Below, piece by piece: positions 24,316 to 31,414 of a DNA stretch of 64,000 bases (its first letter is position 1; each line of letters opens with the position of its first letter). This DNA comes from Escherichia coli 042 (GTDB lineage Bacteria > Pseudomonadota > Gammaproteobacteria > Enterobacterales > Enterobacteriaceae). Under the pieces are notes generated by a model that saw only the letters and a list, made by a program, of their open reading frames with translations, was not told where the DNA came from and ran no database searches. The position numbers and the translations under genes are program-made. The stretch lies in assembly GCF_000027125.1 (NCBI RefSeq), contig NC_017626.1; one strand, 5' to 3'.

Positions 24316-25227
24316 ATGCGACTATTTAACTGGCGACGTCAGGCGGTGTTAAACGCCATGCCACTGGTCAAACCTGACCAGGTACGTACACCGTGGCATG
24401 AATTCTGGCGACGATTTCGCCGTCAGCATATGGCGATGACCGCCGCATTGTTCGTTATTTTATTGATTGTGGTGGCTATTTTTGCACGCTGGATCGCTCC
24501 CTATGACGCCGAAAATTATTTTGATTATGACAATCTGAATAACGGACCTTCTTTGCAGCACTGGTTTGGCGTTGATTCACTGGGGCGTGACATTTTCAGC
24601 CGTGTCCTGGTTGGTGCACAAATCTCGCTGGCGGCGGGCGTGTTTGCCGTGTTTATCGGTGCGGCGATCGGGACGTTGCTGGGCTTGTTGGCTGGATATT
24701 ATGAAGGCTGGTGGGATCGGCTGATCATGCGCATTTGCGATGTGCTGTTTGCCTTCCCTGGTATTTTACTGGCGATCGCTGTTGTTGCGGTGTTGGGAAG
24801 CGGCATTGCTAACGTGATTATTGCAGTCGCCATTTTTTCCATCCCCGCGTTTGCCCGACTGGTGCGCGGCAACACGCTGGTGTTGAAACAGCAAACTTTT
24901 ATTGAATCGGCGCGCAGTATTGGTGCCAGCGACATGACCATCTTATTGCGCCATATCTTGCCCGGGACTGTCTCGTCTATCGTGGTGTTTTTCACCATGC
25001 GCATCGGTACCTCGATTATCTCTGCCGCCAGCCTGTCATTTCTCGGCCTCGGTGCGCAGCCGCCGACACCAGAGTGGGGAGCAATGCTCAATGAGGCACG
25101 AGCGGATATGGTTATCGCGCCGCATGTCGCTATTTTTCCGGCCCTGGCTATTTTTCTGACTGTACTGGCGTTCAATTTGTTGGGTGATGGTTTACGCGAT
25201 GCGCTGGATCCGAAAATTAAAGGATAG
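24316..25227 (+). CDS. gsiD: Glutathione ABC transporter permease GsiD (303 aa)
   Basis: DppC/OppC-like permease; follows gsiC with a 2-nt gap. Confidence 0.93.
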
Positions 25228-25404
25228 TTACGTTTGAATATTGCTTGAAAGGGTAATCACCTCACAGGAAATTATTGCCCTAAGCAAGTGTTGTAACTTT
25301 CTGCTGATTTTGTAGAATCGGGTAATTTGGTTAAAAAGCCGCAGCAAGGGACAATTTTTGCAGCGGTACAGCGTTCAGATAGTTATTTTGTTAAATGTAT
25401 TAAC

Positions 25405-27753
25405 ATGCTGAGTTTATACGAAAAGATAAAGATAAGGCTGATAATTTTATTTTTATTGGCAGCACTGTCATTTATTGGTCTTTTTTTCATCATTAACTAT
25501 CAACTGGTATCGGAGCGCGCGGTAAAACGTGCCGATAGCCGCTTTGAACTTATTCAGAAAAACGTTGGCTATTTCTTTAAAGATATTGAACGTTCGGCCC
25601 TGACATTAAAGGACTCACTGTATTTATTAAAAAATACAGAGGAGATTCAACGCGCCGTGATTCTTAAAATGGAAATGATGCCATTTTTAGACTCGGTGGG
25701 ACTGGTACTTGATGATAATAAATATTATCTCTTTTCGCGGAGGGCGAATGATAAAATCGTAGTTTATCATCAGGAACAAGTAAATGGACCGCTTGTCGAC
25801 GAGTCAGGGCGGGTTATTTTTGCCGATTTTAACCCATCGAAACGACCGTGGTCGGTGGCTTCAGATGACTCTAACAACAGCTGGAATCCGGCATACAATT
25901 GCTTTGATCGTCCGGGTAAAAAATGTATCTCTTTTACGCTACACATCAACGGCAAAGATCACGATTTGTTAGCGGTGGATAAAATTCATGTCGATTTAAA
26001 CTGGCGATATCTGAACGAGTATCTTGATCAAATCAGCGCTAATGATGAAGTTCTATTTTTGAAACAAGGCCATGAGATCATTGCCAAGAATCAACTCGCG
26101 CGTGAAAAACTGATTATTTATAATAGCGAAGGTAATTATAATATTATTGATTCTGTCGATACTGAATATATCGAAAAAACATCAGCGGTGCCAAACAACG
26201 CATTATTCGAAATCTATTTTTATTATCCTGGCGGTAATTTATTGAACGCATCAGATAAACTTTTTTATCTGCCGTTTGCTTTCATTATTATCGTATTGCT
26301 GGTGGTTTATTTAATGACCACTCGTGTGTTCCGTCGGCAATTTTCTGAAATGACAGAGCTGGTTAATACGCTGGCGTTTTTGCCTGACTCAACGGATCAA
26401 ATCGAGGCTCTGAAAATTCGCGAAGGCGATGCGAAAGAGATTATCAGCATCAAAAAATCGATCGCGGAAATGAAAGATGCCGAAATTGAACGGTCAAATA
26501 AATTGCTCTCACTGATCTCTTACGATCAGGAAAGCGGTTTTATTAAAAATATGGCGATTATTGAGTCCAACAATAATCAGTATCTGGCTGTGGGGATCAT
26601 CAAACTGTGTGGTCTGGAAGCCGTGGAAGCGGTGTTTGGTGTTGATGAACGCAATAAAACCGTCAGGAAATTGTGTCAGCGAATTGCCGAGAAATATGCG
26701 CAATGCTGCGATATCGTGACATTTAATGCCGATCTCTATTTACTTCTGTGCCGGGAAAATGTACAGACATTTACCCGTAAAATAGCGATGGTAAACGATT
26801 TTGACAGCAGCTTTGGCTACCGCAATCTGCGCATCCATAAGTCTGCCATTTGTGAACCTTTGCAGGGGGAAAACGCCTGGAGTTACGCAGAAAAACTGAA
26901 ACTGGCGATTTCCAGCATCCGTGACCATATGTTCTCAGAGTTTATTTTCTGTGATGACGCGAAACTCAACGAAATAGAAGAGAATATCTGGATTGCGCGT
27001 AATATTCGCCATGCAATGGAAATTGGCGAACTATTCCTGGTCTATCAGCCGATCGTTGATATTAACACCCGCACCATTCTGGGCGCGGAGGCGTTGTGCC
27101 GTTGGGTGTCTGCGGAGCGGGGGATCATTTCACCGCTAAAGTTCATTACCATTGCTGAAGATATCGGGTTTATCAATGAGCTGGGTTATCAGATTATTAA
27201 AATGGCAATGGGTGAATTCAGGCATTTTAGCGAGCGTGCGGTTCTGAAGGACGGTTTCTTACTGCATATTAATGTTTCGCCCTGGCAGTTAAACGAACCA
27301 CACTTTCATGAGCGTTTTACCACCATCATGAAAGAAAACGGTCTGAAGGCGAACAGCCTCTGTGTTGAGATCACTGAAACCGTGATCGAGCGAATTAATG
27401 AACATTTTTATCTCAATATTGAACAACTGCGTAAACAAGGGGTACGGATATCGATTGATGACTTTGGCACCGGTTTGTCAAACCTGAAACGTTTTTATGA
27501 AATTAATCCAGATAGCATAAAAGTGGACTCGCAATTTACCGGCGATATTTTCGGTACTGCGGGAAAAATTGTGCGCATTATTTTCGATCTGGCACGCTAT
27601 AACCGGATTCCGGTGATTGCGGAAGGCGTAGAGAGCGAAGATGTTGCGCGCGAATTAATCAAATTAGGATGTGTTCAGGCTCAGGGGTATCTGTACCAGA
27701 AACCCATGCCATTCTCCGCCTGGGATAAAAGTGGAAAATTAGTAAAAGAGTAG
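25405..27753 (+). CDS. pdeI: c-di-GMP phosphodiesterase PdeI (YliE), 782 aa: N-terminal TM/periplasmic sensor region plus EAL domain
   Basis: Start trimmed to [13 protein letters not shown]-terminal EAL-domain signatures (EALCRW..., DDFGTG..., QGYLYQKP); visibly AT-rich coding sequence. Confidence 0.9.
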
Positions 27754-27760
27754 TTTACGT

Positions 27761-29089
27761 ATGTCCAGAATCAATAAGTTCGTACTTACAGTCAGTCTGC
27801 TGATTTTTATCATGATTTCAGCAGTTGCCTGCGGGATCTACACTCAAATGGTAAAGGAACGGGTGTATGGCCTGAAACAGTCCGTTATTGATACTGCTTT
27901 TGCGGTGGCAAATATTGCTGAATATCGGCGTAGCGTGGCAATTGATCTCATCAACACGCTAAACCCCACGGAGGAACAGCTGTTGGTTGGCTTGCGCACA
28001 GCTTACGCCGACTCGGTTTCACCCTCTTATTTGTACGATGTCGGTCCTTATCTGATTTCCAGTGACGAATGTATTCAGGTAAAGGAGTTCGAGAAAAATT
28101 ATTGTGCAGATATTATGCAGGTTGTGAAGTATCGACATGTCAAAAATACAGGGTTTATCTCTTTTGACGGTAAAACTTTCGTCTATTACCTCTATCCGGT
28201 AACTCACAATCGCAGTCTGATATTTTTGCTTGGTCTGGAGCGTTTTTCTTTACTGTCAAAATCGCTGGCGATGGATAGCGAGAACCTGATGTTCTCTCTG
28301 TTTAAGAACGGTAAACCGGTGACCGGTGATGAATATAATGCTAAAAACGCCATCTTCACCGTTTCGGAAGCGATGGAGCACTTCTCCTATTTGCCGACCG
28401 GATTGTACGTATTTGCGTATAAAAAAGATGTTTATTTGCGGGTTTGTACGTTGATTATTTTCTTTGCCGCATTGGTGGCAGTGATATCGGGTGCCAGTTG
28501 CCTCTATCTGGTACGCAGAGTGATTAATCGTGGTATTGTGGAGAAAGAAGCCATTATTAATAACCATTTTGAACGCGTACTAGATGGCGGGCTTTTCTTT
28601 TCGGCTGCCGATGTCAAAAAACTCTACAGTATGTATAACTCGGCGTTCCTGGACGACCTGACTAAAGCGATGGGCAGAAAATCCTTTGACGAAGATTTAA
28701 AAGCGCTACCGGAAAAAGGTGGTTATTTGTGCCTGTTTGACGTCGATAAATTCAAAAACATCAACGACACCTTCGGTCATTTGCTGGGCGATGAAGTGTT
28801 GATGAAAGTGGTGAAAATCCTTAAATCACAGATCCCGGTAGATAAAGGTAAAGTCTACCGCTTCGGCGGTGACGAATTTGCGGTGATTTATACGGGTGGA
28901 ACGCTGGAAGAGTTGCTATCGATTCTAAAAGAAATCGTTCATTTCCAGGTGGGAAGCATTAATTTAAGCACCAGTATCGGTGTAGCGCATTCAAATGAAT
29001 GTACTACCGTCGAACGCTTGAAAATGCTGGCGGATGAGCGGCTGTATAAGAGTAAGAAAAACGGCAGGGCGCAGATTAGCTGGCAGTAG
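27761..29089 (+). CDS. dgcI: Diguanylate cyclase DgcI (YliF), 442 aa
   Basis: Membrane/sensor N-terminus plus GGDEF domain (RFGGDEFAV); AT-rich. Confidence 0.9.
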
Positions 29090-29106
29090 AATTAGAATAG
29101 TGTTAG

Positions 29107-29130
29107 TACCCCTTAATCAAGGGGTACTAA
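29107..29130. repeat. Perfect hairpin palindrome agtacccctt-aatc-aaggggtact between convergent dgcI and the antitoxin gene
   Basis: 10-bp perfect stem with 4-nt loop read from the sequence; sits between the stops of convergent dgcI (29089) and the antitoxin (29159). Confidence 0.5.
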
Positions 29131-29158
29131 TGAATGTGGTAAATCATTTGCAAACATT

Positions 29159-29488
29159 TTACTTTGCAAAAACTTCCGGTCCTTTTATTGCCAATGTATT
29201 CAAAATACGTAGTGCCGGGCCGCTCGGTTTTATTTCATTTCGTTCCCATTTCGAGACACTTTCTTTTGACATTCCCATTGTATGTGCCAGCACGGATTGT
29301 GACATGCCGTATCGGGTGCGGATGGCTTTGATCTCTTCACCCGTCATTGATTTGACTTTGGCTATACGGGCGCTGACTTCACGAGCTTTGACCATGACGG
29401 CAATGGCATCAACTTCACTATCAGACATCAGGCCCAGTGCATTCAGTTCCTTTGCATCTTCCAGCATCATTTGTAATTTATCGCTCAT
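29159..29488 (-). CDS. HigA-2-like antitoxin with C-terminal XRE-type HTH domain (109 aa)
   Basis: MSDKLQMMLEDAKELN...EIKAIRTRYGMSQSVLAHTMGMSKESVSKWERNEIKPSGPALRILNTL: HTH followed by the W-E-x-x-x-x-P-S-G-P-A signature remembered from HigA-2/YiaG-like antitoxins; ATG overlaps the upstream toxin 3' end by 11 nt. Confidence 0.8.
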   Translation of the reverse strand: MSDKLQMMLEDAKELNALGLMSDSEVDAIAVMVKAREVSARIAKVKSMTGEEIKAIRTRYGMSQSVLAHTMGMSKESVSKWERNEIKPSGPALRILNTLAIKGPEVFAK

Positions 29489-29864
29489 TTTTCACCTCAA
29501 TCAAAAAGCCAGTTTCGATCAAATCCTCTATTTGCTTATTGCTAAAGGCCAGAAATGCATTTGCCATTTTTTTGTAGGCCACCAGTTCATCATCTTCGAT
29601 TTCTTTGGTTCCTTTACTGCTTAGACCACTCTTGGACCAACCATCATAAAAAAACACATGATTTGCTGATTTAAAAAAGATAATTGTTCTGGCTCCACCA
29701 CTCTTTCCTTGTTGGAGGGGTAAACGTTTTTTGATGACACCGCTACCTAAATCAGCCTCCCATATGCCTTGCATCACTTCTTCAGCGGCAGCCATGAGAA
29801 CTTTATCGTGAATACCAAGTTTTTTCGTGCTTTGGCTGAATCGTCTTGCCTTATACACACCCAT
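29478..29864 (-). CDS. HigB-2-like (RelE-fold) type II toxin, putative ribosome-dependent mRNA interferase (128 aa)
   Basis: MGVYKARRFSQ...QQGKSGGARTIIFF...FFYDGWSKSG...IEDDELVAYKKMANAF: GK-GG-R-I-F ... K ... L core resembles Vibrio HigB-2-type toxins (from memory); toxin-first arrangement with translational overlap to a downstream HTH antitoxin. Confidence 0.8.
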   Translation of the reverse strand: MGVYKARRFSQSTKKLGIHDKVLMAAAEEVMQGIWEADLGSGVIKKRLPLQQGKSGGARTIIFFKSANHVFFYDGWSKSGLSSKGTKEIEDDELVAYKKMANAFLAFSNKQIEDLIETGFLIEVKNER

Positions 29865-29879
29865 ACATCCATCCTTGTG

Positions 29880-29916
29880 GTAATGTTTACTATAGTAACC
29901 ATTACGCTTATTTCAA
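29880..29916 (-). promoter_or_regulatory. Putative sigma70 promoter (-35 TTGAAA, 16 nt, -10 TATAGT) of the toxin-antitoxin operon with overlapping operator palindrome
   Basis: Minus-strand read: TTGAAA(29916-29911)-N16-TATAGT(29894-29889); imperfect palindrome GTAATGnTTACTATAGTAAnCATTAC (29880-29905, 2 mismatches) spans the -10. Confidence 0.5.
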
Positions 29917-30040
29917 GTAATTGCGATCAAAACTTTAATTTGGTGTGAAAAAGTGAGAGTTGCCTCGAGTATGATTCATTTTTCTCGATTTATACGTCAG
30001 GGGATTTTGTGCGTAAGGGTAGGACATGGGAAGGGTAGCA

Positions 30041-30078
30041 GAGGCAGATCGAAGAACAATATCCTTGTTAGATCTGCC
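30041..30078. repeat. Interrupted inverted repeat aggcagatc...(aacaa-tatcc-ttgtt)...gatctgcct just downstream of rimO
   Basis: Read from the sequence; possible rimO terminator hairpin and/or right boundary of the toxin-antitoxin cassette. Confidence 0.4.
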
Positions 30079-30088
30079 TTTAGATTAA

Positions 30089-31414
30089 TTAAACCCGGCT
30101 ACCCCACAAATCGTACTCATCGGCGTGCTCGACTTTCACACGCAGGATATCACCTGGCTTAACGTTGGTTTCACCATTGAGATAAACCGCGCCGTCGATT
30201 TCCGGTGCATCTGCCATGCTGCGACCAATCGCGCCTTCTTCGTCCACTTCGTCGATAATCACCAGAATTTCACGGCCCACTTTCTCTTGCAGGCGCTCGG
30301 CGGAAATCTGCTGCTGCAGCTGCATGAAACGGTTCCAGCGTTCTTCTTTCACTTCTTCCGGAACCTGGTCAGGCAGGGCATTGGCGTCCGCACCTTCAAC
30401 CGGGCTGTATTTAAAGCAGCCAACGCGATCCAGACGTGCTTCTTTCAGGAAGTCGAGTAGCATCTGGAAATCTTCTTCCGTCTCGCCAGGGAAGCCGACA
30501 ATAAAGGTTGAGCGTAAGGTCAGTTCCGGGCAGATTTCGCGCCACTGTTTGATGCGCGCCAGTTGGCGATCTACAGAACCCGGACGCTTCATCAGTTTGA
30601 GAATGCGCGGGCTGGCGTGCTGCAACGGAATGTCCAGATACGGCAGGATTTTGCCTTCTGCCATCAGTGGGATGACGTCGTCCACATGCGGATAAGGGTA
30701 AACGTAGTGCAGACGTGTCCAGATCCCCAGTTTCGATAACTGTTCGCACAGGCTGACCATGCTGGTTTTTACCGGCTCGCCGTTGTGGAAGCCAGTACGA
30801 TGTTTAACATCGACGCCATAGGCGGAAGTATCCTGCGAGATCACCAGAATCTCTTTAACGCCCGCATCAACCAGACGTTTAGCTTCACTTAACACTTCGC
30901 CGATCGGACGGCTCACCAGGTCGCCGCGCATAGACGGAATAATGCAGAAGGTGCAGCGGTGATTACAGCCTTCCGAAATTTTCAGATAGGCATAATGACG
31001 CGGCGTCAGTTTCACACCTTGTTCTGGCACCAGGCTCAGGAATGGGTTGTGTTTCGGTTTTGGCACGTAGTGATGAACGTGCTCCAGAACCTGCTCATAG
31101 CTATGAGGCCCGGTGATTTCCAGCACTTTCGGGTGGACTTCGCGGATCTGATCTTCTTTTGCCCCCAGACAACCGGTCACAATTACCTTGCCGTTTTCAT
31201 TCAACGCTTCACCAATGGCTTCCAGTGATTCTTGTACCGCGCTGTCAATAAAGCCGCAGGTGTTGACGATCACCATGTCCGCATCGTCATAGCTCGGTAC
31301 CACGTCATAACCTTCAGTGCGTAGTTCGGTGAGAATACGCTCTGAATCGACAAGGTTTTTCGGACAGCCAAGGGAAACAAAGCCGATTTTCGGCTGGGGA
31401 GTTACTTTGCTCAT
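30089..31414 (-). CDS. rimO: Ribosomal protein S12 methylthiotransferase RimO (441 aa)
   Basis: [20 protein letters not shown]...; radical-SAM CxxxCxxC (CNHRCTFC) and MiaB-like architecture. Confidence 0.95.

Follow-up and report, generated by a model that had tools for sequence, protein, structure and literature searches.

The tandem genes pdeI (yliE) and dgcI (yliF) lie within a 64,000-nucleotide stretch of Escherichia coli 042 DNA (contig NC_017626.1; the whole stretch is called the window below) and are predicted to encode two enzymes that act in opposite directions on cyclic dimeric guanosine monophosphate (c-di-GMP). The pair is very probably a cassette of two genes, taken up from an AT-rich pool in the common ancestor of Escherichia and inserted at the junction of gsiD and rimO, where its two antagonistic, sensor-bearing enzymes would form a co-transcribed push-pull module. 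A first-pass annotation, made from the letters of the window alone, had proposed an ancient horizontal acquisition. This is borne out by sites that are empty in outgroups, by a site shared among the Escherichia species examined, and by AT-richer paralogues on plasmids. Earlier publications already cover the pair, its low expression, the domain architecture of its products, and the plasmid homologues beside accessory bcs clusters. The present analysis adds quantitative support for an acquisition that is old and partly ameliorated, compares the occupied site with empty ones, documents purifying selection on both genes, and proposes a hypothesis for the PdeI ligand.

The locus is the already named and largely described E. 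coli pdeI–dgcI pair, real and ordinary (Table 1). The positions and 7-bp separation first given for the genes are exact by open reading frames (ORFs), translations, and spacer sequence, their names match the RefSeq annotation of the coding sequences (CDS), and the order of a sensor–EAL protein followed by a sensor–GGDEF protein is supported by Pfam. RefSeq annotation places gsiD upstream and a toxin–antitoxin (TA) pair followed by the convergent rimO downstream. The annotated pdeI ATG sits inside a longer ORF (25327–27753). A 5.2-kb segment (25000–30200) is 100% identical to strain ECA64, matches annotated pdeI and dgcI with 95–100% identity in 5425 complete E. coli genomes, and has at least 80% of its length covered in 5362 of 5426, making the pair near-universal in the species; IS1 insertions or deletions interrupt the locus in some of them. 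K-12 PdeI (YliE, b0833) and DgcI (YliF, b0834) share the lengths, order, 7-bp spacer, and gsiD and rimO flanks of the window genes in a segment ~98.5% identical in nucleotide sequence. The window strain differs from K-12 in having a RelE/HTH TA cassette in place of a 46-bp dgcI–rimO spacer.

The arrangement gsiD–pdeI–dgcI–rimO recurs in five other Escherichia loci: E. whittamii, a representative labeled E. coli (L007), E. albertii, E. fergusonii, and K-12. The spacer between the two genes is 7 bp in all of these except E. fergusonii, where it is 9 bp. In Salmonella enterica, Salmonella bongori, and Citrobacter amalonaticus, gsiD is followed by convergent rimO within ~90–116 bp and the pair is absent, and in Klebsiella no gene is called between gsiD and rimO. 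Phytobacter diazotrophicus carries a LysR regulator, a 2-hydroxyacid dehydrogenase, and a major facilitator superfamily transporter at the junction (L018, 5902–9220), all unrelated to pdeI–dgcI. Different cargo across genera identifies the gsiD/rimO junction as a variable spot. The distribution across Enterobacteriaceae, which the first-pass annotation had put forward as a check, is therefore one of presence at gsiD/rimO in Escherichia and absence from S. enterica, S. bongori, C. amalonaticus, and Klebsiella, for which gain in the Escherichia ancestor would be the parsimonious account.

Outside Escherichia and some Salmonella, the sensor domains appear to be essentially absent. When the N-terminal 530 residues of PdeI were used in a word-indexed search, only Escherichia proteins came back, as with the profile of the DgcI sensor. 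The PdeI sensor profile, run exhaustively as a hidden Markov model against 1.84 billion representatives, gave only 65 matches at E ≤ 1e-3, and nine of the ten weaker matches examined were generic dCache_1 sensors. In ten divergent clusters (seven of the PdeI sensor and three of the DgcI sensor), all named members that were read came from E. coli, E. fergusonii, or S. enterica. A contig labeled as belonging to a Sporosarcina psychrophila metagenome-assembled genome (L009, DYWT01000146.1; 5.6 kb, GC content 0.39) carries a pair of genes like pdeI and dgcI whose products are 37% and 41% identical to those of the window. These identities closely resemble those of an E. coli plasmid pair (L004), and the contig probably comes from an Escherichia plasmid and was misbinned into a Firmicutes assembly.

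Composition was compared across 60 CDS rebuilt from the ORFs of the window, with 55 core genes as the reference, a set that excludes both TA genes and an ORF of plainly foreign origin. GC content is 0.416 for pdeI (z = -3.9) and 0.438 for dgcI (z = -3.1) against a core mean of 0.525 (standard deviation 0.028, range 0.460–0.568). They are the most AT-rich of the window's ordinary genes, and a sliding GC profile drops to 0.40–0.45 only between ~25000 and 30000. The claim that both genes have visibly lower GC than the surrounding core genes was correct, and the wider comparison proposed with it came out divided: GC content is clearly different, and synonymous codon usage is nearly indistinguishable from that of the core. 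Because the codon adaptation index referenced to the window showed no difference (z = -0.01 for pdeI and -0.72 for dgcI), GC content was split into an amino-acid and a synonymous component; the Karlin codon-bias distance is likewise unremarkable for both genes. The GC content expected from amino acids at core codon usage is 0.449 for pdeI and 0.457 for dgcI (core mean 0.528). Amino-acid composition explains 70% of the deficit in pdeI and 78% in dgcI, with the deviation falling mainly at codon positions 1 and 2, and the fraction of Phe, Tyr, Met, Ile, Asn, and Lys (FYMINK) is 0.348 and 0.329, compared with 0.236 ± 0.038 in the core. The synonymous GC shift is -0.033 for pdeI (z = -1.8) and -0.019 for dgcI (z = -0.9; core standard deviation 0.017), and GC at third codon positions (GC3) is 0.451 and 0.508 against 0.567. 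A strong GC deficit joined to near-normal synonymous usage fits an old, ameliorated acquisition. The pair has a GC content of 0.39–0.43 in every Escherichia species examined, though synonymous divergence from E. fergusonii is saturated.

Paralogous pairs of phosphodiesterase (PDE) and diguanylate cyclase (DGC) genes on Escherichia and Salmonella plasmids provide a view of the likely source family. Homologues less than 60% identical are found on plasmids in numbers (68 plasmids carry PdeI-like and 98 DgcI-like genes), and only one of these plasmids is from outside Escherichia. The two pairs compared at full length are 34–41% identical to the window proteins. The paralogues have a GC content of 0.33–0.36 and a GC3 of 0.26–0.31, and they are often flanked or disrupted by insertion sequences (IS); chromosomal GC3 is 0.45–0.51 in E. 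coli and 0.37–0.40 in E. fergusonii. On these figures, the chromosomal copies look like partly ameliorated members of an AT-rich plasmid family.

In the plasmid pairs examined, the genes are adjacent, with PDE before DGC as on the chromosome, and their junctions are an 11-bp overlap (pS163-2.4), 9 bp (Salmonella Saintpaul IncFII), and, in a third lineage that is frameshifted, 62 bp. Adjacent accession numbers hint at the same pairing in one further lineage. The plasmid pairs share with the chromosomal one the order of CHASE9/dCache–EAL then GAPES2–GGDEF, the tight junction, and the periplasmic cysteine pairs; they differ in sequence (34–41% identity), in being AT-richer and often IS-disrupted, in often lying directly 5' of bcsABC, and, in lineages L004 and L005, in a complete ligand-binding motif with tyrosine where PdeI has phenylalanine. 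The enzyme BcsA needs c-di-GMP. On IncHI1B plasmids, the paralogous pair lies directly 5' of bcsA–bcsB–bcsC, which, given that need, points to local control of cellulose synthase as the ancestral role; gating a neighboring cellulose synthase was probably the original job of the cassette. Pairs of YliE/YliF homologues beside accessory bcs (cellulose) clusters on plasmids have been described (preprint 10.1101/2025.05.09.653004). A group II intron reverse transcriptase/maturase gene (ltrA) is found between bcsB and bcsC in three of these loci (L004, 23398–24744; L016, 15752–17098; L017, 15952–17298). GC content climbs stepwise along the plasmid cluster, from 0.415 in bcsA to 0.479 in bcsB and 0.573 in bcsC, which suggests a mosaic origin.

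A conserved promoter ahead of pdeI most likely drives both genes as one transcript. Paralogues only 34–41% identical preserve the gene order and close spacing, which argues that co-expression has been selected. A terminator scan requiring a T-run found no terminator-like element at the 7-bp junction, and a weak Shine-Dalgarno-like AAGAG lies within the 3' end of pdeI. In the gsiD–pdeI intergenic region, the -10 block of the candidate promoter (TTTTGTAGAATC) is invariant in all six aligned Escherichia sequences, including E. fergusonii with its otherwise diverged spacer, and the -35 hexamer is kept in all but E. fergusonii. Promoter-like sites occur at chance density (11 vs 11.9 expected). The conserved block upstream of this promoter may be a regulator binding site.

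Both genes are under purifying selection. By the Nei-Gojobori method, with the window compared to other Escherichia species, the ratio of nonsynonymous to synonymous divergence (dN/dS) is 0.046–0.081 for pdeI and 0.031–0.056 for dgcI. These values are comparable to the 0.025–0.048 of gsiB and gsiC; dN itself is about twice as high in pdeI and dgcI. Overexpressed PdeI blocks the c-di-GMP-dependent phage N4, as do other active PDEs (PMC7553319), and deletion of dgcI (yliF) in strain CFT073 alters adherence, a change that the cyclase WspR complements (PMC3484386). Low dN/dS, full-length conservation, and these published phenotypes indicate a conserved, conditionally expressed pair and not a relic.

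Several observations weigh against a horizontal origin or the module proposed for it. Synonymous codon usage by itself would not mark either gene as foreign, and the 70–78% of the GC deficit carried by amino acids could be a property of the protein family and not a trait of a donor genome. No integrase, tRNA, or flanking direct repeats were found at the insertion, the repeats there being short and at chance level. The absence of such scars is unsurprising for an old event. A scan of species-representative genomes found no relatives of the PdeI sensor outside Escherichia save the one Sporosarcina-labeled contig, a negative that is weak alone since the scan gave only four loci, with the representatives of E. 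coli and E. fergusonii not among them. The bcs genes do not adjoin the chromosomal pair. Finally, genomic SELEX (systematic evolution of ligands by exponential enrichment, here in vitro RNA polymerase binding) assigned an RpoN-holoenzyme peak to yliE>yliF in K-12 (PMC8743547). The locus has the composition and restricted distribution of a horizontally acquired islet and lacks the hallmarks of mobility.

The amino-acid share of the deficit, the near-normal synonymous usage, and the missing scars would all suit a pair native to the Enterobacteriaceae backbone that was lost in Salmonella, Citrobacter, and Klebsiella and owes its AT-richness to FYMINK-rich sensors. This is improbable given a site that is empty in four outgroup taxa and filled with unrelated cargo in Phytobacter, an exhaustive profile search that gave only generic dCache_1 sensors beyond Escherichia and Salmonella, paralogues that are plasmid-borne, IS-flanked, and AT-richer at synonymous sites, and chromosomal GC3 values that are still under that of the core. 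A different proposal complements acquisition from an AT-rich pool: Low GC content may be actively kept by selection against amelioration, as AT-richness would hold the locus under xenogeneic (H-NS-type) silencing and make its expression thermoregulated. Induction at 37°C is typical of H-NS targets. Both genes are induced at 37°C compared with 23°C in CFT073 (PMC12890032), expression is very low or undetectable in standard conditions, and DgcI, undetectable itself under these conditions, is toxic on overexpression (PMC5635695). The persistence of low GC throughout the genus despite saturated synonymous divergence also suits silencing. H-NS binding data for the locus were not found in the searchable literature, and synonymous sites nearer to E. 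coli usage than those of the plasmid paralogues speak against strong selection for AT there; active retention is less likely than not.

That the pair is a silenced relic without current function, heading toward pseudogenization, is highly improbable. The DgcI protein is undetectable in K-12 (PMC5635695), many truncated DgcI and PdeI variants are found in databases, and some genomes have the IS1 insertions or deletions noted above. Against this stand dN/dS values of 0.03–0.08 across the genus, full-length genes in at least 5362 of 5426 genomes, catalytic motifs that are all intact, and published deletion (PMC3484386) and overexpression (PMC7553319) phenotypes. It is also unlikely, if somewhat less so than either loss from the backbone or decay, that pdeI and dgcI are transcribed separately, dgcI from an internal promoter of its own, and that the 7-bp spacing is incidental. 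The RpoN SELEX peak and several sigma-70-like hexamer pairs within the 5' end of dgcI would suit such an arrangement. A sigma-54 promoter was rejected, however, as matches to the consensus are not above chance in the window (34 vs 44.6 expected) and none lies near the junction, and the sigma-70-like sites belong to a population at chance density. Order and tight junction that persist in paralogues 34–41% identical, together with co-induction by temperature, favor one transcript. A two-mismatch sigma-54 site at 25347–25362 was discarded as well, not being conserved in E. whittamii.

PdeI is laid out as a first transmembrane helix (TM1), a periplasmic sensor, a second helix (TM2), a linker, a degenerate GGDEF-like domain, and an EAL phosphodiesterase domain. 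Pfam reports CHASE9 at residues 35–150 (E = 7e-63) and EAL at residues 532–767 (E = 1e-68), the latter model being matched nearly end to end (positions 2–236 of 236). Motifs read from the translation are intact in the EAL domain (E562-A-L-C-R, HINVS, EITE, DDFGTG, KVD, EGVE, and QG), and all EAL consensus residues are present in the residue table for the CFT073 orthologue (PMC3484386). By these residues PdeI fits the catalytically competent EAL class, and hydrolysis of c-di-GMP is predicted. The degenerate domain has no Pfam GGDEF match. The NCBIfam DosP model aligns to residues 389–770, which span the GGDEF-like and EAL regions, and a preprint gives the architecture as xGGDEF and the sensor as "CHASE9-xCache" (10.1101/2025.05.09.653004).

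The first-pass annotation had asked if the N-terminal regions were of the CSS-motif or Cache-like type, and the analysis answers Cache-like for PdeI and, less securely, for DgcI. Pfam reports CHASE9 and EAL alone on PdeI and no dCache_1 match at E ≤ 0.01. An AlphaFold2 model of PdeI residues 30–320 (mean predicted local distance difference test score, pLDDT, 85) has a long helix that leads into two α/β modules. Foldseek gave 81 matches in the PDB at E ≤ 1e-3 (best E = 2e-8), and the best 50 are almost without exception ligand-binding domains of the dCache or tandem-PDC type; they include the proline-bound Aeromonas caviae cyclase 7k5n, Mlp24, Mlp37, TlpC, CqsR, KinD, Tlp3, and PctA. The profile of the PdeI sensor family likewise matches PctA (E = 4e-11) and 7k5n (E = 8e-11) among PDB sequences. 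The structural and profile matches indicate that what Pfam calls CHASE9 is the opening third of a dCache_1 domain that has diverged. CSS-domain phosphodiesterases have a periplasmic domain between two TM helices, with conserved cysteines. PdeI resembles these enzymes (PdeB, C, D, G, and N) as a membrane EAL enzyme of the same topology, but its cysteine pair lies in a different context and its fold is double-Cache. A CSS-motif domain was rejected for PdeI, where Pfam gave no match to it at E ≤ 0.01.

The amino-acid-binding dCache_1AA motif comprises Y121, R126, W128, Y144, and D173 of PctA, with 13–17 residues between its N- and C-terminal parts (PMC8915833). The corresponding PdeI residues are F142, R147, W149, Y164, and D197, with 14 residues between W149 and Y164. 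Proline-bound 7k5n has F/R/W/Y/D, the plasmid lineages L004 and L005 have the complete Y/R/W/Y/D, and plasmid lineage L015 has tyrosine at the first position, has lost the next two, and ends in H and E. PdeI has the double-PDC fold, the RPW motif, and equivalents of PctA R126, W128, Y144, and D173 in common with the dCache_1AA sensors (PctA, Mlp24/37, Tlp3, and 7k5n), and shares phenylalanine at the Y121 position with 7k5n. It differs from these sensors in having serine at Y129 and a family-specific Cys166–Cys174 loop after Y164. The retained residues suggest amino-acid sensing, short of proof, and the PdeI sensor would bind an amino-acid-like ligand in its membrane-distal pocket.

DgcI consists of TM1, a periplasmic GAPES2 sensor (Pfam, residues 26–229, E = 2e-142), TM2, a linker, and a GGDEF domain (residues 295–437, E = 3e-25). 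In the translation, the active site G369-G-D-E-F is intact and the upstream DxD/KxN/D metal and substrate residues are present. An RxxD inhibitory site (I-site) five residues ahead of GGDEF is common among diguanylate cyclases and does not define them. No such site was found upstream of the DgcI GGDEF motif, where residues 360–363 are VDKG. A residue table for CFT073 agrees on both counts, giving matching catalytic residues for the orthologue and a non-consensus I-site column for yliF (PMC3484386). DgcI thus has the residues expected of an active GGDEF diguanylate cyclase and would escape product inhibition for want of an I-site, which fits its toxicity when overexpressed. An AlphaFold2 model of residues 1–294 reached a pLDDT of 79, but three of five models reached only ~50. 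With this insecure model, Foldseek found the double-PDC sensors KinD and CqsR (E = 1e-4, TM-score ~0.5). The periplasmic cysteines Cys104 and Cys115 of DgcI, like Cys166 and Cys174 of PdeI, are invariant across relatives 22–34% identical, and the two pairs may form structural or redox-sensitive disulfides. The claim that the signals sensed by either N-terminal domain are not established agrees with the accessible literature.

Under the proposed acquisition of an antagonistic module, both proteins would sit in the inner membrane, PdeI hydrolyzing c-di-GMP and DgcI making it from GTP, each governed by its own periplasmic double-Cache-like sensor. In PdeI the signal would pass from the double-PDC sensor through TM2 and the linker to the degenerate GGDEF domain and on to EAL; in DgcI it would pass from the double-PDC sensor through TM2 to dimerization of the GGDEF domain. 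Co-transcription from the promoter upstream of pdeI, with very low laboratory expression that rises at 37°C, would allow the push-pull pair to set the c-di-GMP pool according to two extracytoplasmic cues. Synonymous sites would have drifted largely to E. coli usage while purifying selection froze the AT-rich, FYMINK-rich protein composition. The closest functional analogue is the DosC–DosP (dgcO–pdeO) operon, likewise an antagonistic cyclase and phosphodiesterase couple with a sensor on each (PMC5635695). The Dos proteins differ in being cytoplasmic heme-based oxygen sensors with the cyclase gene first, whereas PdeI and DgcI are membrane-bound, would sense through double-PDC domains in the periplasm, and have the phosphodiesterase gene first.

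A more specific proposal is offered tentatively and, taken whole, is doubtful: An amino acid or analogue bound at F142, R147, W149, Y164, and D197 of PdeI would control EAL activity, perhaps modulated by Cys166–Cys174, DgcI with its Cys104–Cys115 pair would read a second cue, and the cassette would have begun as a switch of mobile cellulose operons. If this is true, E. coli has a c-di-GMP module that is gated by nutrient or host cues and induced at 37°C. E. coli has 29 GGDEF/EAL genes, of which these two are among the least understood, with hardly any expression under laboratory conditions. That the cassette is old but still constrained provides a rationale for studying it under host-like conditions and with respect to cellulose, and the same holds for the plasmid relatives that flank cellulose operons. 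The ligand hypothesis, a double-Cache PdeI sensor with amino-acid-binding residues, is the sole forward-looking product of this work; the rest will not surprise a specialist.

The TA cassette is accessory and directly downstream of dgcI, as the first-pass annotation stated; Pfam, the coordinates, and its presence in 1138 of 5426 complete E. coli genomes (21%) agree on this. The toxin gene comes first and overlaps the antitoxin gene by 11 bp. By family and gene order, the cassette would be a type II TA system of the RelE/ParE superfamily with a HigBA-like arrangement, for which toxicity and neutralization are predicted. The nearest solved relative of the antitoxin is Vibrio cholerae HigA-2, a weak match (E = 6e-4), and the toxin had no match among sequences of solved structures. 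Synonymous GC shifts of -0.046 and -0.061 are stronger than those of pdeI and dgcI, and the TA genes look like younger arrivals. The palindrome that overlaps the -10 hexamer of the TA promoter-like site is a probable antitoxin operator. The hairpin between dgcI and the antitoxin gene, missed by the terminator scan that requires a T-run, is a candidate bidirectional terminator. The K-12 spacer, which is all that lies at this place in that strain, holds a different, GC-rich hairpin, which indicates that the whole spacer was replaced along with the TA cassette. The gap between dgcI and rimO is ~50 bp in loci L006 and L007 and ~760 bp in E. albertii (L008, 12815–13575). The E. albertii gap encodes neither the toxin nor the antitoxin of the window at E ≤ 1e-10, and a different insert may occupy the spot there.

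Table 1. Coordinates of the pdeI–dgcI locus and its neighboring elements in the window
Feature	Position	Strand	Details and basis
gsiD–pdeI intergenic region	25228–25404	+	177 bp, GC content 0.367
Conserved block GAAATTATTGC, candidate regulator binding site	25268–25278		Almost fully conserved in six Escherichia sequences; ~35 bp upstream of -10
Candidate pdeI promoter	-35 TTGTAA, 25291–25296; -10 TAGAAT, 25313–25318	+	Promoter scan
pdeI (yliE)	25405–27753	+	782 aa; ORF and translation; RefSeq annotation of identical segment
PdeI periplasmic sensor, divergent double-Cache (dCache_1-like)	25501–26259	+	Residues ~33–285
PdeI degenerate GGDEF-like domain	26497–26979	+	Residues ~365–525; NADLY replaces GGDEF at residues 441–445
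PdeI EAL domain	26998–27705	+	Residues 532–767
pdeI–dgcI spacer TTTACGT	27754–27760	+	7 bp, between pdeI stop TAG (ends 27753) and dgcI ATG (27761)
dgcI (yliF)	27761–29089	+	442 aa; ORF and translation; RefSeq annotation; Pfam
Hairpin TTAGTACCCCTT-AATC-AAGGGGTACTAA, candidate bidirectional terminator	29103–29130		Perfect, 12-bp stem; between convergent dgcI and antitoxin gene
HTH_3 antitoxin gene	29159–29488	-	E = 2e-9; begins 69 bp past dgcI stop
RelE-family toxin gene	29478–29864	-	PF06296, E = 2e-32
Palindrome GTAATGTTTACTATAGTAACCATTAC, probable antitoxin operator	29880–29905		26 bp, near-perfect; overlaps -10 of TA promoter-like site
TA promoter-like site TTGAAA-16-TATAGT	29916–29889	-	Promoter scan, 10/12 matches

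Other parts of the window also vary between strains. The ORF at 58249–60018 (+ strand, 589 aa) has a GC content of 0.327, a GC3 of 0.297, and a synonymous GC shift of -0.096. Its codon usage departs from the norm much further than that of any other gene in the window (bias z ~15), and it looks like a recent foreign insertion; a truncated pentapeptide-repeat pseudogene is annotated at this place in ECA64. At the rlmC/artJ junction (53014–53043), the window is without three ECA64 genes, encoding phosphotransferase system (PTS) IIC, PTS IIB, and a sulfatase (L003, 21295–24474). Upstream of ~16800, the window is offset by 12–13 bp from ECA64 despite 100% identity at the pdeI–dgcI segment, and as insertions and deletions relative to ECA64 occur outside that segment, the gene coordinates of the window were rebuilt from its ORFs.

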